A DNA stretch of 64,000 bases from a virus (lineage: Duplodnaviria; Heunggongvirae; Uroviricota; Caudoviricetes): positions 18,332-82,331 of IMG/VR virus record IMGVR_UViG_3300027708_000034. One strand, written 5' to 3'. The translations under genes were made by a program, and so were the position numbers. The notes under the pieces are model-generated. The model did no database searches and was not told where the DNA came from. It saw only the letters and a program-made list of their open reading frames with translations. How positions within the stretch are numbered: the stretch's first letter is position 1; the number at the start of each line of letters is the position of its first letter. This document shows, piece by piece, positions 10,400 to 33,131 of this stretch.

Positions 10400-10404
10400 T
10401 TATA

Positions 10405-11052
10405 GTGAAAAAGCCCAAAATAGCAGTATTCATGCATCAACCCATGTGCTCGGTACAATCGGGCAACGGGATCATTAACGCCCTAAAATCACACTACGAT
10501 TTCAAAATATTCACCAAACATGAATTAGAGTCTGTATTCTTCAAAGATGTTGATATGGTTGCCTTTCCCGGTGGGTTTGGCAATTCTGATAGTTATGACT
10601 ACTTGCTGAAAATAAACGGCGACCCCATAAGGGAATTTGTCGATCGTGGCGGCAAGTATCTAGGCATTTGTATGGGCGCCTATTGGACCGGCAGTCACTA
10701 CTTTGACCTGCTGGATGGCATTGATGCTGTACAATACTACAAACGACCCACGGCCTGTACACATCGCCCACATACAAAGGCCATGCCCGTGACATGGAAT
10801 GGGCGGCCTGAAAAGATGTTCTTCAATGATGGATGCACCTTTGTGGGCAACCCTAAAAAGTATGAAACCATAGCCACTTATTCAAATGGTGATCCAATGG
10901 CCATCATACAAAACGGTATGGGATTAGTCGGCTGTCATCCAGAGAGCGAACAGTTTTGGTATGACAGTTATCGTTGGATGCCACCACATTGGCATGAGCA
11001 CAGACATCACAGCCTATTGCTTAAATTCGTGGACCAGCTGATGCAGCGGTAG
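10405..11052 (+). CDS. Class I glutamine amidotransferase-like protein (GATase1/BPL_N-like)
   Basis: GICMGAYW nucleophile-elbow (G-x-C-x-G) and an upstream AFPGGFG motif. The 3' end overlaps the convergent minus-strand gene by about 30 nt. Confidence 0.5.
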   Translation: MKKPKIAVFMHQPMCSVQSGNGIINALKSHYDFKIFTKHELESVFFKDVDMVAFPGGFGNSDSYDYLLKINGDPIREFVDRGGKYLGICMGAYWTGSHYFDLLDGIDAVQYYKRPTACTHRPHTKAMPVTWNGRPEKMFFNDGCTFVGNPKKYETIATYSNGDPMAIIQNGMGLVGCHPESEQFWYDSYRWMPPHWHEHRHHSLLLKFVDQLMQR

Positions 11053-12727
11053 CAGCTTTAGTACCCATTGGTATTTTAGATCCATCTGGCTTATTTAGAT
11101 TTTGTATACCCGGGGGATCTTGTGTAGTCGGCACAGGTTGCTGTTGTTGTACCGGTGCAGGTTGCTGTTGTACTGGTGCAGGTTGTTGCATAGTTTGCTG
11201 TTGAACAGGTTCTGATTGATTGGGATTCTGTTCTATATAGTTTTCGATATCGGCAATATTCTTTAACAACGGACCCATATTAATTCTATTTCTAACAGCT
11301 TTTGATCTATTATCAAATTGAGATCTAAGATCAATCAATCTAGCTGGATCACCTCTTGATGGGGTGAATTTTTTGGCCAAATCAGTTTTAGGCAATCCGT
11401 ATATAGAAATTACATATCCCTTTTCTTGTCTCAGCTCAACAAACAATTTAAGTTGTTTTAGTGCTTGTTCGAACTCTGTTCCAAAAGACAACTCTGCAAA
11501 GGCTCTTTTACTATCCGGTTCTAAGATAACCATTTCAACGCCTTCTTCTTTTCTGGTCAGATGTGTTAGTAATCCTTGATAAACATTTTCAATAAGGCTG
11601 TCTGGATTGCTTTTTGCCAAAACTTGTAACTGTTTGCTAATGTATTGATAACTATGAGAAAAAGCATTTTGAAAGTTTTGTTCTTTTTTATCATTCCAAG
11701 TAGCAGGTGCTTTGTAAGGAATTTCGTAGAATTTTTTTCTAAGATCTTCTGATAATGGTATTCCTACAATAGAGGTAAAAAAATCATTTAAGTTATCAAA
11801 ATTATGTCCGCCGGCCTGTCCAAACTGTTCAACGCCGCCTGCCTTAACACTTAGCAGTCTCTTTGCGGTTTCTTTACCGTCGATTAAAATCTTCAAGTCT
11901 ACCTTGGTTGTATTTTGATTTTCTTTTTCTGCACCATCGCTGATGACATCGATCTTATTTTCTCTCGGGTCCGTTACTGCTTCGTTAACTGCGCCAGATA
12001 TGCGTTTGGATTTATTAGCATATTCAATTGCACTTTTTAAACGTTGATCAAAAAGTGCAATTTTGTCTTTAGGAACATTATAGTCTTTTAAAGTTTTTCC
12101 TCTACTGTCTTCATTTAACCAAGCATAAAATGCTTTATTATCCATGAAGGGAATACTTACTTTAAACTCTAATATATCTTTTCCTGCTTGAATTTGTATA
12201 CTTCCTTTATTTCTTGCCAACTCTTTGGCTATGCTTATTACCTGCATTTCTGTAATAATTGAACCTTGGTTGGAAAATTTAGCAGCGACAGCACACCCTA
12301 AAATTGCCTCGGATACATTTCCCATGTTAGGATCAATTTCACCTTTGACTTTTTCATCTTTATAAATTTGTTTTGGAATAACATTTTCCCACTCTTCGCC
12401 AGTAGGTTCGAAAGTCTGATCATCAACTTCTGCCACAGTGAAAAACACATTACTGAAGTCTTTAAGTTTTATAGCACGTTTCATTTGTGCGATAACATTC
12501 TCAGGGTTTTGTATAATTCCTAAAAATCTATTCTCAGTTTTTTCTGCTTTTCTTGAACCGGGCAACTTTTCAGAAGTTACAACATTGAAAGCATACACTT
12601 GATTGTTAATTAACCCGTCAAAAAATAAATTATAATACTGAGGTTTAAGCCAATCGTTATCATTGCCTGTCTGGCTCATGAGCTTTTCAAGTAGTATTGA
12701 TTCGGATAAAAATTCTCTTGCTCGCAT
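11021..12727 (-). CDS. Putative head internal protein with T4-like capsid targeting sequence (start taken at MRAREFLSE)
   Basis: The N-terminus MRAREFLSE resembles the T4 internal-protein capsid targeting sequence MKTYQEFIAE, including the L/I-x-E prohead-protease site. C-terminal PAPVQQQ repeats. It is the last gene of the dnaK operon. Confidence 0.5.
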   Translation of the reverse strand: MRAREFLSESILLEKLMSQTGNDNDWLKPQYYNLFFDGLINNQVYAFNVVTSEKLPGSRKAEKTENRFLGIIQNPENVIAQMKRAIKLKDFSNVFFTVAEVDDQTFEPTGEEWENVIPKQIYKDEKVKGEIDPNMGNVSEAILGCAVAAKFSNQGSIITEMQVISIAKELARNKGSIQIQAGKDILEFKVSIPFMDNKAFYAWLNEDSRGKTLKDYNVPKDKIALFDQRLKSAIEYANKSKRISGAVNEAVTDPRENKIDVISDGAEKENQNTTKVDLKILIDGKETAKRLLSVKAGGVEQFGQAGGHNFDNLNDFFTSIVGIPLSEDLRKKFYEIPYKAPATWNDKKEQNFQNAFSHSYQYISKQLQVLAKSNPDSLIENVYQGLLTHLTRKEEGVEMVILEPDSKRAFAELSFGTEFEQALKQLKLFVELRQEKGYVISIYGLPKTDLAKKFTPSRGDPARLIDLRSQFDNRSKAVRNRINMGPLLKNIADIENYIEQNPNQSEPVQQQTMQQPAPVQQQPAPVQQQQPVPTTQDPPGIQNLNKPDGSKIPMGTKAATAASAGPRI

Positions 12728-12737
12728 AGTAGTATAT

Positions 12738-13409
12738 TTATACCACTTCTGGGAACAGGACTTCGTCCACAAACCGCTTCATCTTAGATTCATCTATGCC
12801 CATACTGACCATGCTGCGTATGACATGGGGGTTTTGCTTTTGATAATAGCAATAACGGTTCTGCGCCATATGGAAATCTGCTAGATCCTGCTGCGTATTG
12901 CCTACATTTAATAGATAATAATCCAAGGTTCTTGTGGCCAGCTCGCATAGATTATTCAACTCTTCCTCGGTTGATACATTGCCAGCAGCAACCATGTTGG
13001 GACTAAAAATTTGCTGAGCCCATTCTGGCAGATTCCTAGACTTACCCCACTCGTAAAACAATGCTTCGGTCCCGAACCACTTCATCATAGGATGGGCAGG
13101 ATCTCCTGCTGCGCTGAAGTCGCAGAATGCACCTGTGATTTTATTGGGACCGCAGACTGCATCAAAGCCCCAAATAGGGCTAGGATCGTTAAAGTGTGGA
13201 AATACTGTAGAGTGCAGTATATAGATATTGTGGCTCTCCCTATGGTCTACGATTTCCACATGGGCTCTGCGATATCGCGGGCTGGTCCAAAGGTCATTGT
13301 GCCATTCATAATCACTACTGATCTTGCCGTGTACAGCCTCACCGGTGGCATTGAATCTCGATTTGATATCCTCAGCTAATTTTTCAATTTTGTCCCAAAC
13401 GTTCGCCAT
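12738..13409 (-). CDS. Ferredoxin-dependent bilin reductase (PcyA/PebS/PcyX family)
   Basis: WTSPRYRRAHVEIV...ILHSTVFPHFNDPSPIWGFDAVCGPNKITGAFCDFS aligns with the PcyA core (YQTPQFRKMHLEL...ILHCVMFPEP...[20 protein letters not shown]). Confidence 0.85.
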   Translation of the reverse strand: MANVWDKIEKLAEDIKSRFNATGEAVHGKISSDYEWHNDLWTSPRYRRAHVEIVDHRESHNIYILHSTVFPHFNDPSPIWGFDAVCGPNKITGAFCDFSAAGDPAHPMMKWFGTEALFYEWGKSRNLPEWAQQIFSPNMVAAGNVSTEEELNNLCELATRTLDYYLLNVGNTQQDLADFHMAQNRYCYYQKQNPHVIRSMVSMGIDESKMKRFVDEVLFPEVV

Positions 13410-13926
13410 ATGATTCCATTATTTTAATCGCCCAGTCAAAGGCTATGTTAGCTTCATCTCCCATGTCGTCTGACAGCATACTACGCATATTAGTCATCAA
13501 CATTTTAGGATCTTCAAAGTCTAAATGTGAGTGCGGTGCGTCCACGATCTTCTTGATCATCTGCCCACCAAACAAGTCGCCCATATGCCAAGTGTATAAG
13601 TGTGCCATGATGCGTTTAGGATCATCTAGTGATCTAATGTAGCTGGCGTAATCCTTTGTCTCTTGCTTATATGTATTGTAACTACCCGTGGGTTTATCCA
13701 TGCTTTGGTAATCATCCATTATCAGTCCTGCCCGTTCAATCCCGGGCAATGCATTTAGCAATCCTGCTTTTCGAGCAGCATGTTCGATCTCTTTATACCA
13801 AAGTTGTTTTTGATAGGTAAAATCTACCCATAGTTCAAAGGGCAATGTTTTGTCAAATACTGCTTTCATGAAAGCAGTGCTTTCGGCAGCAGTGTGTTTG
13901 TCTTTGGTGAGATCTTTTAGGCTCAT
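13384..13926 (-). CDS. Heme oxygenase (short phage-type HO)
   Basis: LKDLTKDKHTAAESTAFMKAV matches HO-1 LKEATKEVHTQAENAEFMRNF. AHLYTWHMGDLFGGQMIKKI matches [20 protein letters not shown]. Confidence 0.85.
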   Translation of the reverse strand: MSLKDLTKDKHTAAESTAFMKAVFDKTLPFELWVDFTYQKQLWYKEIEHAARKAGLLNALPGIERAGLIMDDYQSMDKPTGSYNTYKQETKDYASYIRSLDDPKRIMAHLYTWHMGDLFGGQMIKKIVDAPHSHLDFEDPKMLMTNMRSMLSDDMGDEANIAFDWAIKIMESYGERLGQN

Positions 13927-14225
13927 TCCTGTACTGCCTTAGTGACCAAAGGATGACCGTTTAGTCTAGACAGCTCAGTGGCCTCTGCGACTTTCTGTTC
14001 GGCGATTTCATAACTGTAGATGCCCACTGCCGCACTACCTTGTTCATGAATCTGATAAGTCAATCTAATAGCAGATTCAGTGCTTATAGAAAACACCTTA
14101 ACCAGCAATGCTATCACAAATTCTACAGGAGTATAATCGTCGTTCATGACGACTACTTTATATTTGCTAGGTTCTTTTAACTTCCTAGTAACTCTTGTTT
14201 TTTCTTCAATTGCAGTATCAGTCAT
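13923..14225 (-). CDS. clpS: ClpS ATP-dependent Clp protease adaptor (N-degron recognin)
   Basis: YKVVVMNDDYTPVEFVIALLVKVF...GHPL is colinear with E. coli ClpS ([24 protein letters not shown]...EHPL). Confidence 0.85.
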   Translation of the reverse strand: MTDTAIEEKTRVTRKLKEPSKYKVVVMNDDYTPVEFVIALLVKVFSISTESAIRLTYQIHEQGSAAVGIYSYEIAEQKVAEATELSRLNGHPLVTKAVQE

Positions 14226-14269: not shown

Positions 14270-14704
14270 TTAATCGCCTTTGATAGTTAGTACACGCGGC
14301 TTCAATGCTTCGGGTACCACGCGATCTATTTTAATGGTTAAAACACCATTTTTAATAGCGCCTTCGCCTACGATCATATGTTCAGCCAGTGTCCACGAAC
14401 GAGTAAAGTCGCGGAATGCCAAACCACGGTGTAGAAATTCAGCATCGACATCACTGTCTTTGCTGCGAACACCTTTAACGATCAATTGGTTTTGATCGAT
14501 CTCAACCGCAACTTCATCCTTGGCAAAACCTGTCACAGCGATTTCGATCTCGTAAGTATCTTCATCGTGCTTGACGATATTGTAAGGTGGATAGCTGTTG
14601 TTGATTTGATTTGCAAAACGATTTTCGAAATCGTTGAACATGGTATCAAAACCTAGTAGTGCTCTATTAAGAGCATGGGTGTCAAAACGTACTAATTGTG
14701 TCAT
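14270..14704 (-). CDS. Small heat shock protein Hsp20 (IbpA/IbpB-like)
   Basis: FDTMFNDFENRF...YPPYNIVKHDEDTYEIEIAVTGFAKDEV...VPEALKPRVLTI is colinear with E. coli IbpA (alpha-crystallin domain, IxI-like C-terminus). Confidence 0.9.
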   Translation of the reverse strand: MTQLVRFDTHALNRALLGFDTMFNDFENRFANQINNSYPPYNIVKHDEDTYEIEIAVTGFAKDEVAVEIDQNQLIVKGVRSKDSDVDAEFLHRGLAFRDFTRSWTLAEHMIVGEGAIKNGVLTIKIDRVVPEALKPRVLTIKGD

Positions 14705-14791: not shown

Positions 14792-16693
14792 TTATACAGT
14801 TTCCTTAGCCTCTGCGTCAACGACTCCATCAGCCGCATCCTTTTTAGCCTGTTCTTCAGCCTTCTTGGCTGCTTCCTCGGCTTGGTTTTTCTTAGCAGTG
14901 ACTGGGTTCATGGCTTGATAAAGTTTAGGAATAGTATCTTGGATGAGTTTTACATCATCGCCCGACATGGCATCCTCAAGCGCCTTGACCGCGTCTTCAG
15001 CAGTAGCACGTTCTTCTTCAGTGAGTTGGTCACTGTATTTTTCTAGATCCTCTTTGAATCCGTTCAATGTACCTTCTGCACGATTGCGTTCCTCAATCAA
15101 CTCGCGCTGCTTCTTATCTGCTTCAGCATTGAGTTCAGCATCTTGGACCATGCGATCGATTTCCTCTTTGGTCAATCCGCTGTCGGACTTGATAGTGATC
15201 TTGTTCTCTTTGCCTGTGCCTTTATCAGCTGCTTTGATATTCATGATACCGTTGGCATCGATATCTAGCGTGACTTCGATCTGTGGAACACCTTTGCGAG
15301 CAGGTGGGATGCCTTCTAATTTGAATTCGCCCAACAATTTATTATGCTGGACGAATTCACGCTCGCCTTGGAATACTTTGATGTCCACTGCAGATTGATT
15401 ATCTTCGGCTGTTGAGAACACTTGACTATGCTTGGTAGGAATAGTGGTATTCTTTTGAATCAACTTGGCCATCACCCCGCCCATGGTTTCGATACCAAGA
15501 CTCAATGGGGTAACGTCTAGCAATAGAACGTCTGTACGTCCACCACCTAGCACATCGCCTTGGATAGCAGCACCTGCGGCCACTGCTTCGTCTGGATTGA
15601 CGTCTTTGCGAGGAGCCTTGCCAAACAACTTCTCAACTGTTTCAACTACCTTAGGCATACGTGTCATACCACCGACAAGGATAACTTCGTCGATATCGCT
15701 GGCTGTGACTTTGGCATCTGCCATAGCTGTCTTGCATGGCTCGATACTGCGTTGGATCAGTTCGTCTACCAAACTTTCCAATTTAGCACGGGTCAACTTA
15801 ACGTTCATGTGTTTAGGACCTGATGCATCTGCTGTGATGTAAGGCAAGTTAACATCGGTCTGTGCTGAACTTGACAGTTCAATCTTGGCCTTTTCTGCTG
15901 CCTCTTTAAGACGTTGTAGTGCCAACATGTCTTTCTTGAGATCAACGCCGTTGTCCCGCTTGAATTCATCGACCAAGAAGTCCATGATACGTTGGTCAAA
16001 GTCTTCACCACCCAGGAATGTATCACCGTTGGTGCTTAGTACTTCGATTTGTTTCTCGCCATCAACATTGGCAATTTCGATGATGGATACGTCAAATGTA
16101 CCGCCACCCAAGTCATATACAGCAATCTTGCGATCACGCTTGTCTGCTTTATCAACACCATAGGCCAGTGCAGCAGCAGTAGGTTCGTTGATGATACGCA
16201 ACACTTCAAGTCCAGCGATCTTACCTGCATCTTTAGTTGCTTGACGTTGCTGGTCGTTGAAGTAGGCAGGAACTGTGATAACAGCCTGCGTGACTTCGTG
16301 TCCCAAATAGTCCTCAGCAGTCAGTTTCATCTTGCGAAGTACTTCAGCTGAAATCTGTGGTGGGGCAAGTTCTTGTTCGTTGGCCTTGACCCAAGCATCG
16401 CCATTACTGGCTTCGATGATTTTGTAGGGCATCAGATCGATGTCCTTCTGCACAGCCTGTTCTTTGAACTTACGTCCAATCAAACGCTTGGCTGCATAAA
16501 TTGTGTTTTTTGGATTGGTGATTGCTTGTCGTTTGGCACTTGCACCTACCAGAATTTCATCGCTAGCATATGCAATGATGCTGGGAGTAGTCCTCGCACC
16601 TTCGCTGTTTTCGATTACTTTGGGGATACCGTTTTCAATAACGGCTACGCATGAATTGGTTGTACCGAGGTCGATACCGATTACTTTACTCAT
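14792..16693 (-). CDS. dnaK: Molecular chaperone DnaK (bacterial-type Hsp70)
   Basis: N-terminus [31 protein letters not shown], and an acidic, lid-like C-terminus. Full length 633 aa. Confidence 0.95.
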
Positions 16694-21216: not shown

Positions 21217-21747
21217 TTAGTGTTCCCGAATTTTTAGTTTGGTGTAGACATTTTGTACACCTATGGCTTGACGGATAGCATCTTGTAATGCATCATGCTT
21301 GCTGGCAGTGGGCATGTCTGGATCTACACCTAGATCAAACAGTGTACGAGTGTCTCTAAGTTGCCAGAAATTCCACGGTAGAGGTTTACCGATCTGTCGA
21401 TAGATATTTTCTAAAATCACTAGGTCAAATGTAGCACCGTGACTCCAAAAAGTTGAACAGCCCCAAGCAAATTTATGGAATCGATCCATAGCTTCTACCA
21501 AGGGCAACCGGTCATCTGGACTGAAGGCTTCTTCCATGATGGCAGGGTCCTGTTTCGACCACCATTCGATGGTATTAGGATCTACTTCCCTGCCTAATGC
21601 ATCTTGATCGTCGATGCTGATACGGAAATATATTTTGTCTCCGTAGCCATTACCATAGGGATTGAAGTGTACTGCCCCGAGAGTCAGTACAGTTGCATTT
21701 GGGCCAGTGGCCATCGTTTCCATATCCACCATCAATGCTTTTGTCAT
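21217..21747 (-). CDS. DEDDh-type 3'-5' exonuclease (DnaQ/RNase T-like fold)
   Basis: MVDMETMATGPNATVLTLGAV (Exo I D-x-E) ... SHGATFDLVILEN (Exo II) ... HDALQDAIRQA (Exo III H-x4-D). Confidence 0.6.
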   Translation of the reverse strand: MTKALMVDMETMATGPNATVLTLGAVHFNPYGNGYGDKIYFRISIDDQDALGREVDPNTIEWWSKQDPAIMEEAFSPDDRLPLVEAMDRFHKFAWGCSTFWSHGATFDLVILENIYRQIGKPLPWNFWQLRDTRTLFDLGVDPDMPTASKHDALQDAIRQAIGVQNVYTKLKIREH

Positions 21748-21784
21748 TGTTGTCTTTCTATAGTTTTAAACAACTATTATAGCA

Positions 21785-23020
21785 CTATGCGGCAGGTGTG
21801 TCAACGGCTTTTTTATTAAATTCCATCAAGGCGTTGCCTTTGCCGCCCACAGTGTTTTTATCTATAACAATTTTAACCAGTCCTCGTTCCACTAGATCCA
21901 TGGCTTCAAACTGATACGGCAGTAATATTTTTTCGATGATGTTTTTCAATCCACGAGCGTTAGTTTTAAGTTCCTTGGCTTTCTCAGCTATCTGTGATAA
22001 TGCTTCTTTTTCAAACATTAGTTCGATGCCATCTAATTTAAAAATGTATTGATACTGTTTGACAATGCTGTTCTTTGGCTCGTCCAATACCTGCACGAGA
22101 TTTTCGATAGACAATTCATCCACGTTGGTGATCAATCCAAACCTGCCTACAAACTCAGGAATCAATCCGTACTGTATAAGGTCCTTGGTGCTGACTAATC
22201 TGTAGGGGTTTTCTACCACTGTTTTATCTACAGAAGCTGAGTGGAATCCCACGCTGCGAGTATCCATACGTTTTTCGATCAGCTTGTCTAAGCCAACAAA
22301 TGCCCCGCCGCATATAAACAAGATGCTGCTGGTATCGATTTCCTGCATGTCACCGCCCGGGTGCTTACGCTTGCTGGTAGAAGGGATACGCATGATGCTG
22401 CCTTCGATCATTTTTAAGAGTGCCTGCTGTACGCCTTCTCCTGACACATCTCTTGTTATGCTGACGTTTTCGCCTTTACGTGCGATTTTATCTATCTCGT
22501 CGATATAAACAATACCCCGAGATGCTTTGGCTACATCACCATCAGCTTCGTTGATTAGTCGTGTTAGAATGCTTTCCACATCATCACCCACATAGCCCGC
22601 TTCTGTGATACCTGTGGCATCACATATGACAAAAGGCAGATCCAAATACTCGGCAATCTTTCTTGCCAGCATGGTCTTGCCGCAACCAGTAGGTCCTAGT
22701 AATAGTACATTGGTCTTTTCTAGTCGTATTTCTTTACTTGGATTGTTGATGCGCTTGAAGTGTTGACTGACTGCTACACTAAGAGCAATTTTAGCATCGT
22801 CCTGTCCGACAACATAATCGTCTAGGTAATCTTTGATCAACGTGGGATTCAAAAGATTTTTATGATCGTGAGGTTTTTTACCCTTTTCATCATTTAGTAT
22901 TTCCGAGCATAGGTCTATGCAGTCATTGCAAATAGCAGCATGTTCACCGACTATAAGTTTTTCAACATCTTCTTTGCTCTTACCGCAAAAATCGCAATTA
23001 TGATTTGTTTGTGTCGTCAC
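21785..23020 (-). CDS. clpX: ClpX ATP-dependent protease ATPase subunit (N-terminal C4 zinc finger plus AAA+ domain)
   Basis: CDFCGKSKEDVEKLIVGEHAAICNDCIDLC zinc-binding domain. LLLGPTGCGKTMLARKIAEYLDLPFVICDATGITEAGYVGDDVESIL is colinear with E. coli ClpX. Confidence 0.9.
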   Translation of the reverse strand: MTTQTNHNCDFCGKSKEDVEKLIVGEHAAICNDCIDLCSEILNDEKGKKPHDHKNLLNPTLIKDYLDDYVVGQDDAKIALSVAVSQHFKRINNPSKEIRLEKTNVLLLGPTGCGKTMLARKIAEYLDLPFVICDATGITEAGYVGDDVESILTRLINEADGDVAKASRGIVYIDEIDKIARKGENVSITRDVSGEGVQQALLKMIEGSIMRIPSTSKRKHPGGDMQEIDTSSILFICGGAFVGLDKLIEKRMDTRSVGFHSASVDKTVVENPYRLVSTKDLIQYGLIPEFVGRFGLITNVDELSIENLVQVLDEPKNSIVKQYQYIFKLDGIELMFEKEALSQIAEKAKELKTNARGLKNIIEKILLPYQFEAMDLVERGLVKIVIDKNTVGGKGNALMEFNKKAVDTPAA

Positions 23021-23402
23021 CTAAAATGGTCTCCAAAAATTCTTCGATGTTACTTACTCTATTGTGATTGATGTGTTGATATATTTCTACAAGCTCGTAA
23101 TTTGATGTAGAGTAATAGACTCCGCGCTTGCTCAATATATGCCCTGCCAGTGCCTGTGTAATAAAATTGCAATCATCTAAGTTAATGTACTTATGCTCAC
23201 ATAAACTCATGGTGTAAAAAAGCCACTTCATATTCTTCTCGCCCGAGTAAACATAAAAATTTATGTCTTGATTTACATTGGAATTTTTCAACCAAACACT
23301 GGCAGCATCTTGATCTTTAGCATTTAGGTGCATGAACAATATACTGGCATTGCTGTTCTCAAAAAAATCCGGTTCAGTGATTAGGGTAATTTTTCCTTGC
23401 AT
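22998..23402 (-). CDS. Hypothetical protein (134 aa)
   Basis: ORF overlapping the clpX start by about 20 nt. Confidence 0.4.
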   Translation of the reverse strand: MQGKITLITEPDFFENSNASILFMHLNAKDQDAASVWLKNSNVNQDINFYVYSGEKNMKWLFYTMSLCEHKYINLDDCNFITQALAGHILSKRGVYYSTSNYELVEIYQHINHNRVSNIEEFLETILGDDTNKS

Positions 23403-23403
23403 A

Positions 23404-24669
23404 TTATAACTTGGCCGATACTTCTTGTTTTATATATCTAGGAACATCGTCGATGGACAGTTCGTTGTTTTTAACTCGTTCAGCTAGTTCATTGACATGC
23501 TGTTCTATTTTTGCCTTGCTGGTCTTGACATAGTCATCTCTGCTGATGCTATTGACTTTGCTCCACACATTGCTGGTAGATTGTTCTTCATTTTGCACAT
23601 ACCCGCTTGCGTTTAATGCAGTCATGTTATTGAATGCTTCGTCTTCTTCGGGAGTGGATTCGCCGTACATGACTGTGCTGGCAGTTTCTTTTATTGGTTC
23701 GATTTCTTCTTCAGTCAATGGCCCCTCATTGGGTTCAATTTCTTCTTCGGGGATATATTCTTGTGGTTGGGGTACAATATCGTTAATGCTTACAGCCTTA
23801 ACAGGTTCGGTGTCTCTACTCCTAAACATTTCAAAACTGATTTGGCTGGCAATCAACAGTATCAATGCCAAGGGATCAAATACCACGATGATCAGTATGA
23901 TCACCCAAGTAACTGCACGTTCTAGAATAGTTTCATTAGTGCTGCCGTATACAAATGCCGCTATGTATTTGATTGGTCCAACTTCAGCTTCTACCTTTCG
24001 AACTTCCGCTGCGATTGGCGCACGCTCTTCATTAAGCTGACTAATTGCTGCCTGGAAGGTTTGGATTTCCTCTTGTAAGCGAGCACGCTCTTTCTGTTGG
24101 GACCTCCGAATGTTAACTGATTTTTCTGCACCCTTTTGGTCGTTACTGCGACCCATGACCTGATCCACAGCCTCATCGAGCTGTTTAAGTGCTTTGCGAT
24201 TGGCATCTATGTTCTCCTTGGCTATGTTAATTTTTTCATCGTACACTGCTATCTTGGCCGCAACATCTCCCGACACTAGATTTTGGTCACTATGCGCTTT
24301 GCTTAGAAAGCCAAAGATACCCATGCTGGTAATGACCATAAGCATGGCGATGGCTATGCACAGATACGTTTTAACAGTCAGCGGAGAGATGCTCCAGTTT
24401 TGTTTGAGCCACACAGTGGCCACAATCTTGCTGACTTCCAGTGCCACACCCATGATGATAATGGGTATGACTGCTGCTGAGAAGATTGCTGTAAGTCCTG
24501 CAACGCTGTAGTATATTGCCACTGCTGACAGTGCCAGTCCGCTGAGTAGTGCTAGATAAGCGATTAGCCGTTCATTGAGTGTAGTTTTCATTATATATTT
24601 ATCGTCCATTTTATCTACGCATGGAGGAAATGCTAATGGCTTCTTCGTCGCTGAACACCGGTACTGCAT
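23404..24669 (-). CDS. Membrane protein with N-terminal transmembrane helices and a central coiled-coil (start probably an internal Met)
   Basis: Four hydrophobic helices, then a long K/E/Q-rich heptad region, then another hydrophobic helix (VTWVIILIIVVFDPLALILLIA). Confidence 0.5.
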   Translation of the reverse strand: MQYRCSATKKPLAFPPCVDKMDDKYIMKTTLNERLIAYLALLSGLALSAVAIYYSVAGLTAIFSAAVIPIIIMGVALEVSKIVATVWLKQNWSISPLTVKTYLCIAIAMLMVITSMGIFGFLSKAHSDQNLVSGDVAAKIAVYDEKINIAKENIDANRKALKQLDEAVDQVMGRSNDQKGAEKSVNIRRSQQKERARLQEEIQTFQAAISQLNEERAPIAAEVRKVEAEVGPIKYIAAFVYGSTNETILERAVTWVIILIIVVFDPLALILLIASQISFEMFRSRDTEPVKAVSINDIVPQPQEYIPEEEIEPNEGPLTEEEIEPIKETASTVMYGESTPEEDEAFNNMTALNASGYVQNEEQSTSNVWSKVNSISRDDYVKTSKAKIEQHVNELAERVKNNELSIDDVPRYIKQEVSAKL

Positions 24670-25006
24670 TGCTCTTATGCATGGTACCGATGCCTAAAAT
24701 TTTTGTGCCTGTATATTGTGGATTGGGTTTGCTGGAGACTGGGCCAGAATGTCCAGTGTCTAAACTTTTGATATGATGCGTATTAGTCCTGCCCACAGGA
24801 GTAGGCAATGAATACACAAGGGGTTCAGCAGCAAGGGCACGTCGACGCTTTTTTTCGTCAGCTTCGACGCCCCACCGCTTTTGCATGTCTTTCCAGGATT
24901 CTTCCAATTCCCTGGCCTTACGTGCTTGTTCAGAATTTCGATATTTTTGTTTGCCCTTCTTCTTACCACTCAGGCTCAAAGAAGGATGTACAAGATGCAT
25001 AGTCAT
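24611..25006 (-). CDS. Hypothetical basic protein (131 aa)
   Basis: Lys/Arg-rich N-terminal half. No motif recognised. Confidence 0.4.
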   Translation of the reverse strand: MTMHLVHPSLSLSGKKKGKQKYRNSEQARKARELEESWKDMQKRWGVEADEKKRRRALAAEPLVYSLPTPVGRTNTHHIKSLDTGHSGPVSSKPNPQYTGTKILGIGTMHKSNAVPVFSDEEAISISSMRR

Positions 25007-25066: not shown

Positions 25067-25249
25067 TTACAGAACTTCAATTAGCAATTTGTGCAGATTG
25101 TCCCTGCGCTCTGATTCATCGACTAACATCTCGTAATCTTCTTTACCACAGCCACATTCTGGGCAGGTAAAATCATCGGCTAGGTTTTCCCACTTGCCTT
25201 CGGTCGCTTCATCGTGGACATGCCCACATACTACGCATACTGGTTTCAT
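25067..25249 (-). CDS. Rubredoxin-like protein (60 aa)
   Basis: CVVCGHVHDE...W...FTCPECGCGKEDYE: two CxxC(G) knuckles with the conserved Trp/aromatic spacing of rubredoxins. Confidence 0.65.
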   Translation of the reverse strand: MKPVCVVCGHVHDEATEGKWENLADDFTCPECGCGKEDYEMLVDESERRDNLHKLLIEVL

Positions 25250-25698
25250 TATAGTGCCTCCAATTTTGATTGATATGCTGCCGCATGGCGCTGTTCGATT
25301 TTTGCCAATGCTGCAAAACGCTTTTCTGCCTTAGCCAATACTGCTGCAAATTTCTCTGCATGTTCTTGGCTTTCGGCGATTTGATGATCAGCTTCGATCA
25401 CTGCACGGGCATTACCTTCGTGTTCCGCTGCTCTCTTGAACTCTGGATACATGGTGGTAAACTCATAGGTTTCACCTTCGATAGCCTTCTCCAAACACTC
25501 TCGGGTTGATGGTTTGCCAACGAGCAATTCCAAATGACCCCAAGCGTGTAGCAGTTCTTGATCTGCGGTATGCTCAAAATGTTGAGCAATTTCCTCATGG
25601 CCTTCTTCACGGGCGATCCGGGCAAAGTAGCGATACTTGATGTGTGCTTGGCTTTCCCCTGCCAAGGCACTTTCAAGATTTTTAATTGTAATAGACAT
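25249..25698 (-). CDS. Rubrerythrin/ferritin-like diiron protein (no fused rubredoxin domain)
   Basis: Paired E...ExxH motifs (ESQAHIKY...EEGHEEI and EGETYEF...ESQEHAEKF) typical of rubrerythrin diiron four-helix bundles. Confidence 0.7.
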   Translation of the reverse strand: MSITIKNLESALAGESQAHIKYRYFARIAREEGHEEIAQHFEHTADQELLHAWGHLELLVGKPSTRECLEKAIEGETYEFTTMYPEFKRAAEHEGNARAVIEADHQIAESQEHAEKFAAVLAKAEKRFAALAKIEQRHAAAYQSKLEAL

Positions 25699-25794: not shown

Positions 25795-26202
25795 TTATGA
25801 AGGCCTAGTTTCTTTCAATACCTTTAGCACACCTTCTAAACGGGCAATGTCTTCATAAGTTGCATCGTTTTTCATTCGATTACACCGCATACAGATAACC
25901 CATAGATTAGCCAAGTCATTAGTTCCGCCAATGCTTTGGGGAATTAGATGATCAGTGCTGGGAGTTTCGTAGTCCTTCTTACCGTGATTGTTTTTACCTA
26001 AACCATAATTTAGTTCAGTACCACAGCAAGGACAGTGTGTTTGACACTTGGCCAAAAATGGCTCGTATTCCACACCCCAAGTAATGCTGCTCGATTTAGC
26101 CCAAACTGGACGTAGGTCCCCGGTGGCACATACCTGAGCATATAGATCCCTACTCAGATATGTTTCCGGATTATACTTTGGATATAACTGGAATGTGGAC
26201 AT
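25795..26202 (-). CDS. HNH endonuclease
   Basis: CPCCGTEL...DHLIPQSIGGTNDLANLWVICMRCNRMKND: HNH H-N-H and Cys zinc knuckles. Confidence 0.65.
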   Translation of the reverse strand: MSTFQLYPKYNPETYLSRDLYAQVCATGDLRPVWAKSSSITWGVEYEPFLAKCQTHCPCCGTELNYGLGKNNHGKKDYETPSTDHLIPQSIGGTNDLANLWVICMRCNRMKNDATYEDIARLEGVLKVLKETRPS

Positions 26203-27369: not shown

Positions 27370-28260
27370 TTAGAAGCTATATTCTAAACCAACGCCATAG
27401 CGCGTGGTATCAGAGCTTGCATCTTCCAACAAGTAACGAGCCAATACTTTGGTATTTTTACCTATGTCATAGTTAAGACCCACGTTGTAGGCCTTGGTAG
27501 AACTGACTTCACCGTAGCTGGCCATTGCGGTCAATTTTGGCATCACTGTTTGAGTAACACCAACGCTTCTACCTGTGGTTGCTACACCGCTGACTGTGTC
27601 GTCGGAATATAGACCAAATACAGTTGTACCAGTCTTAGCCAGGGTGTACTTAACGCCATAGGCATTGGTTAGACTTGTTACACCGTTGTCAAAACGAGCA
27701 TATGTAAGTCCAACTGGACCAGCAGCGAAAACTAAACTGGCAGTATAAGAGTTTGGTGTACCAGCGACTTCACTGTTGCTGTATACATAGTTGGCTGTCA
27801 AACCATCTACGAATGTATTGGTAGATAGGAATATGCCATTGCTCAAACGTGTACCTTGATATGCATGGATAGTGCCTGCACTGGATCCAAACAAATCACC
27901 ACCCATGGCATCAAACGAGTCAAGTGCTTTGGTTAGGGAAGTCTTATCACGACCCAATCCCATTGTGCCATACTCATTCTTAAGTCCGATCAAGGCAATG
28001 CGATCGCCAATGGTGCTGGCGGTTGGTGTATCAATACCCACACCTACTTCGATTTGACCAAATGCTGATAGTCCATCACCGAGGTTGTCGCCTGCCTTGA
28101 AACCAAGACGGCTTTTGTCGTTGGTTAAAGAAGTAACAGCGGCTGCTGTGCCAACGGTGGAGGATTCCTCGTAGACACGGCCCATGCCGTAAACGGTGAC
28201 ATCGGCTTGGGCTAATCCCATGAATCCGATTAATGCTGCAAAGATTGCAAGTTTTTTCAT
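27370..28260 (-). CDS. Outer-membrane general porin (Gram-negative porin, Porin_4/OmpC-like beta-barrel)
   Basis: Signal peptide MKKLAIFAALIGFMGLAQA. Alternating amphipathic beta-strands. C-terminal ...YGVGLEYSF with terminal Phe (OMP sorting signal). DVTVYG start typical of neisserial/betaproteobacterial porins. Confidence 0.8.
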   Translation of the reverse strand: MKKLAIFAALIGFMGLAQADVTVYGMGRVYEESSTVGTAAAVTSLTNDKSRLGFKAGDNLGDGLSAFGQIEVGVGIDTPTASTIGDRIALIGLKNEYGTMGLGRDKTSLTKALDSFDAMGGDLFGSSAGTIHAYQGTRLSNGIFLSTNTFVDGLTANYVYSNSEVAGTPNSYTASLVFAAGPVGLTYARFDNGVTSLTNAYGVKYTLAKTGTTVFGLYSDDTVSGVATTGRSVGVTQTVMPKLTAMASYGEVSSTKAYNVGLNYDIGKNTKVLARYLLEDASSDTTRYGVGLEYSF

Positions 28261-28348: not shown

Positions 28349-28591
28349 TTAAAATTCTTTTAGTCGGGCAATGTCTTTATGTTTGACGATTATTATATGT
28401 TTAATTTCGTCGTTGTATTTAATGGGCAAGTCTAGGTGTATGGTTATTTCAGGACCGGAGTCATTGATTTTACGGTCATTTCCCACTGAACCGACAAAAG
28501 GAATCTCGTTCCAATAGCCAAATACTCTATCTCCTATAGAATACTTGGGCTTGTAGCCTTTTTCGTTAAAATAGTCTGCGAGGCTTGGCAT
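28349..28591 (-). CDS. Small hypothetical protein (start uncertain; the long N-terminal extension of the 145-aa ORF overlaps the GDSL gene and is probably not translated)
   Basis: Conserved-looking C-terminal 80 aa after the internal Met MPSLADYF. Confidence 0.3.
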   Translation of the reverse strand: MPSLADYFNEKGYKPKYSIGDRVFGYWNEIPFVGSVGNDRKINDSGPEITIHLDLPIKYNDEIKHIIIVKHKDIARLKEF

Positions 28592-29021
28592 CTTTGGTTT
28601 GCTCCGCAAGGTCCCTATATCCAGACCAACTGGGATGGATGTTGTCTTTTTGTACACGAGTGAAGGGTAAAACAATGTCACCATTTTCCGCGGCGACTGC
28701 CTTGACGAAACGTTGTATCCATTCAATATCCATACCACCGGCAGGGTTGTTGCCATGTGGCAAGATCCAAAACACATGCTCGGCATTGACTGCCTTACGT
28801 ATCTGTTGTAATTCGAAGATAGTTCTCACATTTTTATGATCATTGGAGCCTAAACTGATGATCACAGTTTTAGCCTCGGGCAATACACCCTGATCACTTT
28901 TTAGATATTGTTTGTTCCATTGCTGACTATTGATACCACCTTTGGCCATGACCGCACACTCAGGTCTAAACTGTTGTGTACCTACTGCTATACTATCACC
29001 TAAAATCAAACATTCAATCAT
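28566..29021 (-). CDS. SGNH/GDSL hydrolase family protein
   Basis: Block I GDSIAVG, block III GSNDH, block V DNIHP (DxxH). Confidence 0.65.
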   Translation of the reverse strand: MIECLILGDSIAVGTQQFRPECAVMAKGGINSQQWNKQYLKSDQGVLPEAKTVIISLGSNDHKNVRTIFELQQIRKAVNAEHVFWILPHGNNPAGGMDIEWIQRFVKAVAAENGDIVLPFTRVQKDNIHPSWSGYRDLAEQTKDAKPRRLF

Positions 29022-29417: not shown

Positions 29418-29642
29418 TCATTTCTCAATCTTCACATTTTTTCGAAAGTCGCAGGCTCTACAATGTGTTCCACTAAAGTATTCACCTTGTTTATTATGCC
29501 AAATGAATAGTTTAGTTGTCATCCAATGATCGCCAATCTTACATTGTTTGCGACGGTCGTCCCAGGTCATGTGATCCGCAAACACCAACCAACCCCATCC
29601 TGCCAGGGCCGCGATAAACAATACAGCACTAAAGTAGATCAT
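29418..29642 (-). CDS. Small membrane protein
   Basis: Hydrophobic segment YFSAVLFIAALAGWGWLVF. Coupled to the next gene by an ATGA overlap. Confidence 0.4.
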   Translation of the reverse strand: MIYFSAVLFIAALAGWGWLVFADHMTWDDRRKQCKIGDHWMTTKLFIWHNKQGEYFSGTHCRACDFRKNVKIEK

Positions 29643-30046
29643 AATATTTCTTCTTCCAAATATCGTTTCAATTCTTTGTCCAAGGGCTGTACTGTGTAAT
29701 TCTGTTTGAAAAATATTTCATAACTGTCACTGCCGTACTTGCCAATCCCATACAACACTGTAGCATCATCGCCGTCCCAAGTCAACCAGTCACGACTCAT
29801 GCCCACCAACCTCTTGTAGCGCACATTGGTCATGCCCAGGGGTTTGATAATGCTTTTGACAAATTCCTCATCGGCGGAGATCAATGCCTCGGGTGTGGGA
29901 AACCAATATAGGAATTCAGGCAAGGTGGTCTTGACTGGTTTGCGTCCGGTTTGGTTCAGCATGATCACGCCCACCATATGTTCCCAACTGTTCTGTATCT
30001 GTTGCTGTACCATTAGGTCATCGCGTAGGGGTTCGAAAAATTTCAT
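29639..30046 (-). CDS. Short HhH-GPD-like protein (possible DNA glycosylase)
   Basis: VGVIMLNQTGRKPVKTT...FPTPEAL...VLYGIGKYGSDSYEIF...QPLD: helix-hairpin-helix Gly-rich turn followed by a P-x-D about 18 aa later. Confidence 0.4.
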   Translation of the reverse strand: MKFFEPLRDDLMVQQQIQNSWEHMVGVIMLNQTGRKPVKTTLPEFLYWFPTPEALISADEEFVKSIIKPLGMTNVRYKRLVGMSRDWLTWDGDDATVLYGIGKYGSDSYEIFFKQNYTVQPLDKELKRYLEEEIL

Positions 30047-30321: not shown

Positions 30322-30479
30322 GATTCAACTCCGAAATGTTCTTTAATCCTACGGTTAATCTCCGTTAATACCTCTTCGGTAACATCTTTGACCTTGCCTG
30401 TTAGAACACAATGTTCGTGTTCCCAAGTGCAGATTGTTTTACTTTTTCCATCTTGCTCAACCACAACCGATAGTTTCAT
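30318..30479 (-). CDS. 53-aa protein with the C-terminal IKEHFGVES motif (short member of the FGVE family, not in the ORF track)
   Basis: Translates as MKLSVVVEQDGKSKTICTWEHEHCVLTGKVKDVTEEVLTEINRRIKEHFGVES. Shares the 17-nt 3' DNA repeat ttcaactccgaaatgtt with two paralogs. Confidence 0.4.
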   Translation of the reverse strand: MKLSVVVEQDGKSKTICTWEHEHCVLTGKVKDVTEEVLTEINRRIKEHFGVES

Positions 30480-30736
30480 TCTTCAACTCCGAAATGTTTT
30501 ATTACACGGACGATGTCTTTTTGTAAAAGATTAGCACCATTCAAATCTCCCTTGTCTAGTAGTTGCTTACGATCTTTTCCAAGAGTAAGTTCTAAACATT
30601 CCCTAACAATCAACTCGGCGAACTTTGGCAAAAAGATTTCGTTATAGAGACGTCTGTTTCTACGACTTTCATCTTCATATTCTGCCTTGATTTCTTCTTC
30701 AGCCTGTGACCAAAGTTCTTTAATTCGTTCGTTCAT
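30476..30736 (-). CDS. Small protein, MNERIKEL.../KFAELIV/FGVEE family member
   Basis: MNERIKELWSQAEEE...KFAELIVRECLE...HFGVEE. Confidence 0.55.
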   Translation of the reverse strand: MNERIKELWSQAEEEIKAEYEDESRRNRRLYNEIFLPKFAELIVRECLELTLGKDRKQLLDKGDLNGANLLQKDIVRVIKHFGVEE

Positions 30737-30996
30737 TCTTCAACTCCGAAAATGTTCTTAATCGTTTCACCGGCATCAAACATACCATCTTCCCAACCCA
30801 CTTGATAATCAGTGCTTTTGTCCCGACGCAATTCCTGTGTATCAAGAACCGTATATCGCAATTCTTCGAGACATTCCTTGACAATCAACTCGGCGAACTT
30901 TTCTCGGTCAAACACTTCAAAGGTAAGTGGATTGTAAGGTGTAGGGCCTTGAATAGAGGTAGCCTGCTCAGCAAGTTGTTTAATTCGTTCGTTCAT
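30733..30996 (-). CDS. Small protein, MNERIKQLAEQA/KFAELIV/FGVEE family member
   Basis: MNERIKQLAEQATS...KFAELIVKECLEE...IFGVEE. ATGA overlap with the previous member. Confidence 0.55.
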   Translation of the reverse strand: MNERIKQLAEQATSIQGPTPYNPLTFEVFDREKFAELIVKECLEELRYTVLDTQELRRDKSTDYQVGWEDGMFDAGETIKNIFGVEE

Positions 30997-31245
30997 TTAC
31001 ATTCCTTCACATTTAACGCCGCCGCCATTATCACCAATCACCTGCTGTGGAAATCCACGTTGACCGATAATGAATTTATAACCATCTATACAGCGTGATT
31101 CAGTCAAGCCATTAATGCCCATGCTAACATTGCTGGAACCGTTTTGAGATACAGCAAAAAAGCCAAAGACCGCTATAACAATAATAAAACCTATTGCTAT
31201 AACCATCATCAATTCAATTAAAGTAAATCCGTGATTAGTTTTCAT
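30997..31245 (-). CDS. Type IV pilin/pseudopilin-like protein (prepilin-type N-terminal cleavage/methylation domain), 82 aa
   Basis: MKTNHGFTLIELMMVIAIGFIIVIAVFGF: G^FTLIE with Glu at +5 and a hydrophobic alpha1 helix. Short C-terminal domain with one Cys pair. Confidence 0.6.
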   Translation of the reverse strand: MKTNHGFTLIELMMVIAIGFIIVIAVFGFFAVSQNGSSNVSMGINGLTESRCIDGYKFIIGQRGFPQQVIGDNGGGVKCEGM

Positions 31246-31481
31246 TCTTTAACTCCAAATTGGCGTGCGATTCTATATGCCACAATGCCTACCGCATTTG
31301 ATTCTTTAACAAGTTTGGCATTTACCAGTTGATCATCCCAATTTTTAGCAATATTCAAACAGTCTCGCACAATCAACTCGGCAAACTTACTTGCTGTAAA
31401 ATCGGAATAATCAATCCCCTCGGCACCAAAGCGAGCACCAGCCTTGTGTAGAAGGCTATCTATTAGTTGTTGATTCATCAT
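31242..31481 (-). CDS. Small protein, KFAELIV/FGVKE family member
   Basis: ...SKFAELIVRDCLNIA...RQFGVKE. First gene after the promoter at 31512-31540. Confidence 0.5.
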   Translation of the reverse strand: MMNQQLIDSLLHKAGARFGAEGIDYSDFTASKFAELIVRDCLNIAKNWDDQLVNAKLVKESNAVGIVAYRIARQFGVKE

Positions 31482-31564: not shown

Positions 31565-32422
31565 TTACTTACCAATGTTCATCAGGGTCTTTGTATCGCC
31601 GCCCAACATTGTGCTAGGCAATGCACCGTTCCACTTTTCAATCCACTGCAACTTGACATAGTTCTCACCACCGTTGCTTTGGATAGCAGCGGCTTGGATC
31701 GCGATGGCCTTGGCTTCACCATCTGCTTGTGCGATACGACTTGCAGCCTCAACTTTGATACGCTCCAGGTCTTGTTGAGCCTTGGCAGTTTGTTGCACAG
31801 AGATCACCTTGGCTTCGATGGCCTTTTGATATTCAGGACTGAATCCAAAATTCACCAAACTAATATTGCTCACCGTGATGTTGAACGGAGCCATCTTTTC
31901 CACCAAGTGCTGTAGAATTTCTGCACTGACCAAATCACGTTTGGTAACCAATTCTTCACTGGTGTAGTGACCAGTCACACTCTTGAACGCTTCGTTGATG
32001 CCAGGGCCAAGAACCTTTTCATCCACATTGAGACCGAACTCTTTATAGATATGTGGTACTTTGAGTGGATCTAGACGATAGTTAACCACGATGTCAGTAT
32101 GCACAACCTGCAGGTCTTTGGTACCTGCATTGGCACCTTTTAGTTCCGCCTTCTGTAGACGAACATCCACATCCTTGATTGAACTGATTGGATTCACAAA
32201 GTGAACACCTTCAGTCAAGGGCAAGGGATTGACTTCACCAAGTGTAACCTGTACACCAGTGTGTCCTGCACTGATCACAGTAAATGCTGAAACTCCAATT
32301 GATATGAGAATAATTGCTAGACCTGTAAGTACGCCCAACGCAATCTTTTTGAATTCTGACATAAAAATAATAGCACCTGCTACTAGCAAACCTACGATGA
32401 CACCCACAAGAATTGTGAACAT
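31565..32422 (-). CDS. SPFH/band-7 (prohibitin/HflC-like) membrane protein
   Basis: N-terminal TM helix. SPFH core (QVVHTDIVVNYRLDPLKVPHIYKEFG...) and a C-terminal coiled-coil alanine-rich region. Confidence 0.8.
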   Translation of the reverse strand: MFTILVGVIVGLLVAGAIIFMSEFKKIALGVLTGLAIILISIGVSAFTVISAGHTGVQVTLGEVNPLPLTEGVHFVNPISSIKDVDVRLQKAELKGANAGTKDLQVVHTDIVVNYRLDPLKVPHIYKEFGLNVDEKVLGPGINEAFKSVTGHYTSEELVTKRDLVSAEILQHLVEKMAPFNITVSNISLVNFGFSPEYQKAIEAKVISVQQTAKAQQDLERIKVEAASRIAQADGEAKAIAIQAAAIQSNGGENYVKLQWIEKWNGALPSTMLGGDTKTLMNIGK

Positions 32423-32445
32423 GATATTCCTTTGTTAAAAATTAA

Positions 32446-32479
32446 ATTATACACAAAAAGAAAGGGCCCGTCAAGGCCC
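32446..32479 (-). promoter_or_regulatory. Second compact terminator-promoter module (hairpin gggcc-TTGACG-ggccc, T-run, -10 TATAAT), near-identical in architecture to 31512-31546. Promoter for the SPFH gene.
   Basis: -35 in the loop (RC of 32469-32474), 17-nt spacer, -10 (RC of 32446-32451). Hairpin followed by TTTCTTTTT on the minus strand. Confidence 0.55.
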
Positions 32480-32574
32480 TTTGGTTGTTTTGATAATAAG
32501 GTAAGTCCTACCTCACCAAAGCCTAAGCGGCGATGGAATATAACTCGTCGTTTGCAGTTATGAAATTTGCTTGA

Positions 32575-32802
32575 TTAACGGTCATCGCCTACCGTGTTGC
32601 CGTCGCCACTATCTAGCCCAATCGATCCTGTGTCAGGCCCAACATAAAGAAACTTTGGAATAGGATTATTAAATCCTTTAAATCCTGTAAAACGATATCC
32701 TAGATTAGGAATATCCCAAAGTAAAGGTGCCCAACACACTCTTTTTACTGTGTCATCTTTGTCTACTACAACAAAATACTGTTTTACTTTTTCCAATTTC
32801 AT
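32575..32802 (-). CDS. Small hypothetical protein (ATG at 32802; the track shows a TTG start one codon upstream)
   Basis: ORF. Preceded by a GC-rich structured leader. Confidence 0.4.
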   Translation of the reverse strand: MKLEKVKQYFVVVDKDDTVKRVCWAPLLWDIPNLGYRFTGFKGFNNPIPKFLYVGPDTGSIGLDSGDGNTVGDDR

Positions 32803-32894
32803 CAAATTTCCTTATGGTGGACCTGCCGGGCACTGCCCCCGGGTCTTGGCCTCCTTCGTTTTGAAGGGATTACAACAATAACTCTTACTTATCT

Positions 32895-33131
32895 TCAATG
32901 TCTCACAGCAAACATACTGCTGATCATCGCTCTTACCAAAACTAAGTCACTTTCACATGTGACCACTATGGGTTCATCCAAATCTTCGTCATCTTCCCAT
33001 GCCTCTTTTGGAAACTGTAAAAAATCGAAAATAGTTCTAAAGGTCACAGTCCTACCTTGTGTGTAGGCCAATTCTATCACATCCACTATAGAATTTACTA
33101 TTTGTTGAGTTTTAAAATCCAAAGGAGTCAT
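32895..33131 (-). CDS. Small acidic hypothetical protein
   Basis: ORF only. Confidence 0.4.
   Translation of the reverse strand: MTPLDFKTQQIVNSIVDVIELAYTQGRTVTFRTIFDFLQFPKEAWEDDEDLDEPIVVTCESDLVLVRAMISSMFAVRH

Follow-up and report, generated by a model that had tools for sequence, protein, structure and literature searches.

What would a phage do with the unfoldase ClpX and the adaptor ClpS when neither the ClpP peptidase nor the ClpA unfoldase is to be seen beside them? The question is raised by a stretch of phage DNA of 64,000 nucleotides (below, the window), in which clpX and clpS lie several kilobases apart on the same strand. We consider it probable, on the strength of motif conservation and of what related phages carry, that both genes are functional parts of a phage proteostasis kit and that the ClpP/ClpA gap is an effect of sampling. 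The evidence for this reading, and the readings that compete with it, are given below.

By its gene content the window is part of a large T4-like freshwater phage. A protein of 1049 aa (52129-55278) matches the virion structural protein family phrog_5838 with 914 bits and has 52% identity with a virion protein of Synechococcus phage S-CAM1. The window also encodes a class I ribonucleotide reductase and tail-fibre proteins, including a collagen-repeat fibre that bears a Peptidase_S74 chaperone domain. A megablast search with 3 kb around clpX found no close relative among GenBank phages. In IMG/VR, ClpX proteins of the same type (64-91% identity; the next match falls to 58%) are found on about 84 viral contigs. 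We repeated the scan with the ClpX of one relative (L071) as seed and recovered mostly the same contigs, which indicates that this clade of about 84, referred to below as window-type, is nearly fully sampled; the second scan of IMG/VR added no further link to ClpP. Some of the window-type contigs reach 320-355 kb, and judged from them the window may represent about one fifth of the phage genome. JGI lake metagenomes contain further contigs of this phage (99.85-100% nucleotide identity), and these extend the window by 8.1 kb on the left and 8.65 kb on the right. The flanks bring in glycosyltransferase and structural genes.

The clpX gene (21785..23020, minus strand, GTG start) encodes a predicted AAA+ unfoldase of 411 aa whose N-terminus carries a C4 zinc finger. 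The protein reaches 528.7 bits with the NCBIfam equivalog model NF003745 (cut-off 359) and 501.6 bits with TIGR00382 (cut-off 370.75), its Pfam domains are zf-C4_ClpX (53.6 bits), AAA_2 and ClpB_D2-small, and over 405 residues it shares 51% identity with E. coli ClpX. The initial annotation had placed a ClpX with a zinc finger at exactly these coordinates, and the equivalog and Pfam models agree with it. In order to examine the functional motifs, we aligned the protein with E. coli ClpX and 80 relatives, so that family counts are given out of 81. The four cysteines of the zinc finger are invariant (81/81). The Walker A (GPTGCGKT), Walker B (IVYIDEIDK), arginine finger (PEFVGR) and sensor 2 (NARGL) motifs match those of E. 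coli and are conserved. Among the pore loops, the GYVG pore-1 loop is present in all 81 proteins, the pore-2 loop is kept in the window protein, and the RKH loop has its arginine and lysine in 81 and its histidine in 75 of the 81.

The presence of a loop for docking onto ClpP, the IGF-type loop, had been proposed as a check on the phage ClpX, and the loop is there. In the window protein it reads SVGFH, and across the family the first residue of the tripeptide is V in 44, I in 36 and M in one protein, followed by G in 81 and F in 81, while the flanking residues vary. In the ClpX of a sister clade that is linked to ClpP, the loop reads S-IGF-G. The invariance of G-F in all 81 proteins suggests that docking onto some ClpP is under selection. 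The gene as a whole appears to be under purifying selection, with a dN/dS of 0.03 against the closest relative (L004). By these motifs the window ClpX is a canonical, functional-looking phage copy of bacterial ClpX.

The clpS gene (13923..14225, minus strand) encodes a protein of 100 aa, a predicted N-degron adaptor of ClpA/ClpC-type unfoldases. It follows clpX on the same strand, 7.6 kb further downstream, close to the 8 kb given at first. The protein matches Pfam PF02617 with 96.7 bits (cut-off 23) over 78 of the 80 model positions and has 49% identity with E. coli ClpS. It stays under the cut-offs of all ten NCBIfam ClpS equivalog models; the best score is 94.3 bits (NF000669, cut-off 149), and no cut-off of the top-scoring models is lower than 112. 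By NCBI's criteria, then, the window ClpS is a divergent family member and no equivalog. The residues N34, D35, T38, H66, E79, K84 and L99 (E. coli numbering) are invariant in all 17 phage homologues, and E79 and K84 fall inside a conserved EIAEQK motif. We take N34, D35, T38 and H66 to form the N-degron pocket of E. coli ClpS, where they bind the alpha-amino group, and E79 and K84 to be its contacts to the N-domain of ClpA. With both the predicted pocket and the predicted ClpA contacts kept in 17/17 homologues, the sequence supports the part of the earlier proposal in which the phage ClpS acts on ClpA. Two positions are less constant: D36 is kept in 12 of the 17 homologues and replaced by N in 5, and the gatekeeper M40 is V in the window, a replacement that might broaden specificity. 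A literature search found no experimental work on phage ClpS and N-degrons.

We then searched for the missing partners in the DNA of this phage itself. A tblastn search of the window with E. coli ClpP gave a best E value of 1.9, and the same search with E. coli ClpA matched only the AAA+ module of ClpX. Pfam scans of about 60 window ORFs, which take in every ORF of at least 90 aa that is not nested inside a longer one, found neither CLP_protease nor Clp_N. The 16.8 kb of flanks also hold no Clp genes, so that a total of 80.7 kb of this phage is without ClpP or ClpA. The initial annotation had reported neither gene in the window, and the tblastn and Pfam searches, together with those of the flanks, lead to the same result. 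At two places, other genes stand here in the position that ClpP takes in relatives. One lies next to a GATase-like gene whose homologue in the window is at 10405-11052 (loci L161, L169 and L170), and the other follows homologues of 29639-30046 and 28566-29021 (locus L246). In none of the 80 window-type loci did ClpP or ClpA turn up at 10 kb or less from clpX, and no homologue of the ClpA N-domain/D1 was found in the window, the flanks, the 80 ClpX loci or 167 ClpP loci.

These absences support a reading in which the lineage is truly without ClpP and ClpA, and in which the tmRNA tag (described below), ClpX and ClpS run on the ClpP and ClpA of the host and redirect its proteolysis. The 80.7 kb without either gene, the 0/80 relatives and the two empty syntenic positions all fit it, and the conserved IGF-type loop and ClpA-contact residues fit it as well, since partners for them must exist. 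Host ClpAP has in fact been put forward as the partner of phage ClpS, to which the phage protein would feed its targets (Iyer et al. 2021, PMC7824862). We consider this reading possible though unlikely, and the evidence against it comes from related contigs and from complete phage genomes.

Among the relatives, the ClpP scans of IMG/VR are represented by the best 80 of at least 591, at least 574 and at least 238 matches, and the ClpA scans by the best 80 of at least 490. A degenerate DNA pattern that recovers 162 of 167 known ClpP genes of the family gave at least 120 matches in a scan of the collection. Eleven window-type ClpX contigs exceed 100 kb; one of them is among the ClpP matches listed and the other ten are not, and none of the 84 window-type contigs is among the ClpA matches listed. 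This scarcity of large window-type contigs among the listed matches is weak evidence of absence, and it favours the host-partner reading. The one contig that is listed, IMG/VR 3300027734_002590, speaks against it: it carries a window-type ClpX (68% identity), ClpS and a ClpP that lies about 64 kb from clpX. The size of the related contigs (320-355 kb) tells in the same direction, with the window perhaps covering only about a fifth of the genome.

In sister viral contigs the genes ClpX-(DnaK)-Hsp20-ClpS-ClpP are found inside about 8 kb. On one strand, locus L214 has the order ClpX-Hsp20-ClpS-ClpP and locus L232 the order ClpX-DnaK-Hsp20-ClpS-ClpP, with 3 kb between ClpS and ClpP. The ClpP proteins of these two loci are 62-66% identical to E. 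coli ClpP, and their ClpX proteins 49-54% identical to that of the window. IMG/VR contains very many members of the ClpP family with this level of identity to the E. coli protein (at least 574 matches). Within 10 kb of the 167 ClpP-anchored viral loci among the matches listed, ClpX occurs in 24, ClpS in 26 and Hsp20 in 25. Freshwater viral contigs are likewise rich in phage ClpA (at least 490 matches), and in five loci among the matches listed it lies 6-8 kb from a DnaK that is 74-76% identical to the DnaK of the window.

Complete genomes point the same way. In GenBank, the complete phage genomes that encode ClpX (Atu_ph07, Phosso, the PA5oct group, phage G and the Lak phages) have without exception a true ClpP with 46-64% identity to E. 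coli ClpP, and in phage G clpP lies immediately 5' of clpX. Full-length ClpA is present in all complete GenBank phages with ClpS that were checked (the PA5oct group, Atu_ph07, Phosso and Rak2-like phages); the check covered the ClpS-bearing phages other than Salicola phage SCTP-2, which has ClpS and ClpP. As far as the entries of Table S8 in Chen et al. 2020 go, seven of seven ClpS-bearing genomes are ClpP-positive, and the three curated freshwater genomes listed there with HO, Fe_bilin_red, DnaK and ClpS all have CLP_protease and DnaJ. That the complete genomes examined with ClpX or ClpS have their own ClpP and ClpA counts against a host-dependent lineage. The presence of these genes in the relatives and in complete genomes makes a window-edge effect the most likely cause of the gap here. 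Thus, the missing ClpP is probably a sampling effect and no special orphan design, and we think there is a good chance, somewhat better than even, that the phage has its own ClpP elsewhere in its genome. The earlier proposal that the phage ClpX and ClpS run on host ClpP and ClpA fares unevenly in this light. The part that concerns the proteins is supported, with the docking loop and the ClpA contacts kept and with a published precedent in Iyer et al. 2021. The part that takes the phage to lack a peptidase and ClpA of its own is not borne out, with ClpP and ClpA found in every comparable complete genome and ClpP on contig 3300027734_002590.

The genes around clpX are relevant to a second alternative. 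A cassette with the order 131-aa ORF, 421-aa protein, 134-aa ORF, clpX and Rv2179c-like exonuclease recurs across the clade, where these members are present in 75, 74, 79, 80 and 72 of the 80 loci, respectively. The 134-aa ORF (22998..23402, minus strand) overlaps the start of clpX by 23 nt, has a median position of -391 nt relative to the start of clpX in the loci that have it, and has no Pfam or PHROG match. The 421-aa membrane and coiled-coil protein (23404..24669, minus strand) is found upstream of clpX in both phage ClpX clades, including 13 of the 16 ClpP-linked loci; it has about 66% identity over the N-terminal 230 residues and a weak match to DUF4407. Directly downstream of clpX is the Rv2179c-like 3'-5' exo(ribo)nuclease (21217..21747, minus strand; Pfam PF16473, 125.5 bits).

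E. coli ClpX is able to remodel MuA complexes without a peptidase. The phage ClpX might likewise be a peptidase-free unfoldase or remodeller in replication, transcription or assembly, with ClpS serving mainly to inhibit host ClpAP. The cassette is consistent with this, as it holds a membrane/coiled-coil protein, the 134-aa ORF and an exonuclease but no peptidase, and Iyer et al. 2021 (PMC7824862) have suggested that phage ClpX and ClpA may work as translocases or in assembly. However, the invariant G-F of the docking loop amid variable residues is hard to explain without docking onto ClpP, and we regard this alternative as improbable.

That the Clp genes are bacterial DNA, through host contamination or chimeric assembly, is so improbable that we rejected it: the 49-51% identity to E. 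coli proteins does show a bacterial origin of the genes, but T4-like phage genes lie on both sides on the same strand, about 84 independent viral contigs, drawn from many samples, share the cassette, and the GC content is even (0.40-0.45) over 8-50 kb of the window.

Returning to the reading of a functional kit with partners beyond the window, the other members of the kit are chaperones and a tmRNA. The dnaK gene (Hsp70; 14792..16693, minus strand) scores 969.6 bits against the NCBIfam DnaK equivalog (cut-off 648) and 852.7 bits against Pfam HSP70. Between dnaK and clpS lies a gene for an IbpA-like Hsp20 (14270..14704, minus strand; Pfam HSP20, 56.6 bits), which reaches 119.7 bits with the NCBIfam IbpA model and is thus under its cut-off of 212. 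The genes run dnaK-hsp20-clpS, with clpS last, and are followed by genes for heme oxygenase and a PcyX-like bilin reductase. An Hsp20 gene is also found immediately 5' of clpS in PA5oct and in the sister loci L214 and L232.

A permuted two-piece tmRNA gene (32432..32907, minus strand) was detected by both ARAGORN and Rfam. It scores 122.6 bits with Rfam RF04321 tmRNA_permuted at 32523-32877 (gathering score 47) and 67.8 bits with alpha_tmRNA (gathering score 50). The tag frame GCA AAC GAC GAG UUA UAU UCC AUC GCC GCU UAG translates to ANDELYSIAA followed by the stop. The gene shares its strand with clpX and is situated 9.4 kb upstream of it. In 27 of the 80 related loci, too, a permuted tmRNA precedes clpX on the same strand, 3-9 kb away, and most of the tags there fit the pattern ANDxx[YF]x[LMIV]AA. 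In bacteria, ssrA-tagged proteins are textbook substrates of ClpXP, and ClpS inhibits their breakdown by ClpAP. The phage tmRNA would supply an ssrA-type C-terminal degron of the kind that ClpX reads. Pfam scans of the window ORFs found no homologues of SmpB or SspB. The tmRNA, DnaK and the IbpA-like Hsp20 are a context that the initial annotation had not included. Taken by gene content, ClpX and ClpS are part of a dispersed kit of permuted tmRNA, ClpX, DnaK, IbpA-like Hsp20 and ClpS, and kits of this composition probably characterize a clade of large T4-like phages from fresh water. Comparable kits have been seen in other giant phages, and tmRNA genes have already been described in huge phages (PMC7162821).

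How such a kit would work we infer from knowledge of the protein families. The phage tmRNA would rescue stalled ribosomes and add a tag ending in ANDELYSIAA to the unfinished protein. ClpX hexamers would read this C-terminal degron as well as other substrates, dock through their VGF loops on the ClpP tetradecamer and feed the substrates in. The ClpP partner would most probably be a canonical phage-encoded ClpP beyond the 64-kb window, and otherwise that of the host. ClpS would bind N-degron substrates and dock on the N-domain of phage or host ClpA, and in doing so might shift ClpAP from ssrA-tagged proteins to N-degron and aggregated proteins. DnaK and Hsp20 would deal with misfolded or aggregated protein and buffer the burst of phage protein synthesis.

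Compared with the E. coli ClpXP, ClpAPS and tmRNA-SmpB systems, the window shares the architecture of ClpX, its catalytic and docking motifs, and the pocket and ClpA-contact residues of ClpS. The tag is ANDELYSIAA in the window and ANDENYALAA in E. coli. The window genes differ in being phage-borne and dispersed, and the tmRNA in being permuted and in two pieces. Bacteria have a clpS-clpA operon, whereas the window has neither this nor a clpP-clpX operon.

Among phages, PA5oct (MK797984) shares with the window ClpX, ClpS and the Hsp20 gene just 5' of ClpS, which in PA5oct lie on one strand within 3 kb; the identity to the window proteins is 42% for ClpX and 36% for ClpS. PA5oct also encodes FtsH, and downstream of its clpX come a true ClpP, at a distance of 10 kb, and DnaJ-ClpA, at 24 kb. 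Its genes run from clpX (169.7 kb) through hsp20, clpS (172.6 kb) and clpP (180.3 kb) to dnaJ-clpA (193.6 kb), a spread of 26 kb. In the window, by contrast, 7.6 kb separate clpX from clpS, and neither ClpP nor ClpA is to be seen. DnaK is present in the window but is not annotated in a 16-kb stretch of PA5oct. Atu_ph07 and Rak2-like jumbo phages also carry ClpX and/or ClpS in their genomes. These phages have the full set of ClpA, ClpB, ClpP, ClpS, ClpX and DnaJ, and are distant from the window phage (50% identity for ClpX and 34% for ClpS). Their Clp genes have been discussed as helping phage replication or host survival (Attai et al. 2018, PMC6102473). The freshwater phages tabulated by Chen et al. 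2020 share with the window heme oxygenase (180 aa), a PcyX-like reductase, DnaK, HSP20 and ClpS. In that tabulation the bilin reductase has 227 aa against 223 aa in the window and DnaK 634 aa against 633 aa, a likeness that is one of gene set and lengths, and the genomes carry CLP_protease and DnaJ, which are not seen in the window.

The combination of genes is thus already known, both from the annotation of cultured jumbo phages and from a table of freshwater phages; PA5oct, Atu_ph07, Phosso and Rak2-like phages have annotated ClpX, ClpS, ClpP and ClpA genes. Mildly new, perhaps, is the tight tmRNA-clpX cassette that runs through the clade. A stronger form of the host-partner reading, which we regard as doubtful, would hold that the whole window-type lineage of about 84 contigs has no ClpP or ClpA and encodes only a layer that chooses substrates, run on host ClpP and ClpA. 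The elements of such a layer can be named: the tmRNA tag, the ClpX held in its cassette, and ClpS with its altered gatekeeper residue. If this were true, the phage would re-address the proteolysis of its host instead of bringing a protease.

Together, the Clp components, chaperones and tmRNA found in phages are a sign that large phages control protein quality in the course of infection. The clade described here is abundant in lakes, and its compact, conserved linkage of tmRNA and ClpX would be suited to testing whether phage unfoldases read phage tags.

The clpX gene (21785-23020, minus strand) lies in a conserved five-gene cassette (21217-25006, minus strand), which reads in order a 131-aa ORF (phrog_27048), a 421-aa protein with membrane and coiled-coil segments, a 134-aa ORF that overlaps the clpX start, clpX itself, and an Rv2179c-like 3'-5' exonuclease. 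In the ClpP-linked ClpX clade, the sister group of phage ClpX proteins with ClpP nearby, clpX likewise follows the 421-aa protein. The exonuclease could help to remove non-stop mRNA; alternatively, it is simply an enzyme like DexA of T4.

The phage encodes its own tmRNA, a permuted (two-piece) form at 32432-32907 (minus strand) with the tag ANDELYSIAA, which scores above the gathering score of the alpha-proteobacterial tmRNA model as well. Tags in relatives include ANDERFALAA and ANDESYALAA, and these may hint at the host lineage. Directly downstream (31565-32422, minus strand) is an SPFH/Band-7 protein with a weak match to HflK. In bacteria, HflK/C modulates the FtsH protease, and in the Pseudomonas jumbo phage PA5oct FtsH is located within the Clp cluster.

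Three paralogous small ORFs of 86, 87 and 79 aa stand in tandem at 30476-31481 (minus strand), all having the motif KFAELIV[RK][ED]CL and a C-terminal FGV[EK]E. The row is broken up by an 82-aa ORF (30997-31245) with the N-terminus GFTLIELMMVIAIGF, which resembles a type IV pilin or pseudopilin signal. Cargo out of the ordinary for a phage was also observed on the minus strand: a rubrerythrin-like protein is encoded at 25249-25698, an HNH endonuclease at 25795-26202, and at 27370-28260 a protein that weakly matches Gram-negative porins.

The stretch directly downstream of clpS (13923-14225, minus strand), 12738-13926 on the same strand, encodes a 180-aa heme oxygenase together with a PcyX/PcyA-like ferredoxin-dependent bilin reductase of 223 aa. 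Among the 80 related viral loci, heme oxygenase is found near clpX in 16 and the reductase in 13; Chen et al. 2020 also report the pair from large freshwater phages. In ClpS, residue 31, corresponding to the M40 'gatekeeper' of E. coli, is valine, as in 5 of 17 phage homologues, and the position of M62 is threonine in 14 of the 17. Such substitutions may give ClpS a broader N-degron specificity.

A 1226-aa tail-fibre protein with collagen repeats and a C-terminal Peptidase_S74 intramolecular chaperone domain is encoded on the opposite strand (3011-6691, plus strand), in a GC-rich island (0.51 versus about 0.42). An accessory group at 7690-11052 comprises genes for a GT4 glycosyltransferase, a metallophosphoesterase, a GATase-like protein and a RimK-like ATP-grasp ligase; the ligase gene may be the one that Chen et al. 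2020 annotate as cofF. We compared 10405-12772 of the window with positions 9990-11230 of three close relatives' loci (L161, L169 and L170), where the GATase-like gene faces a convergent ClpP gene. The genes flanking ClpP share 81-84% amino-acid identity with their window counterparts, and the window has at this site a 583-aa ORF (11021-12772, phrog_3560) instead. In this phage clade, ClpP has the look of a mobile accessory gene.
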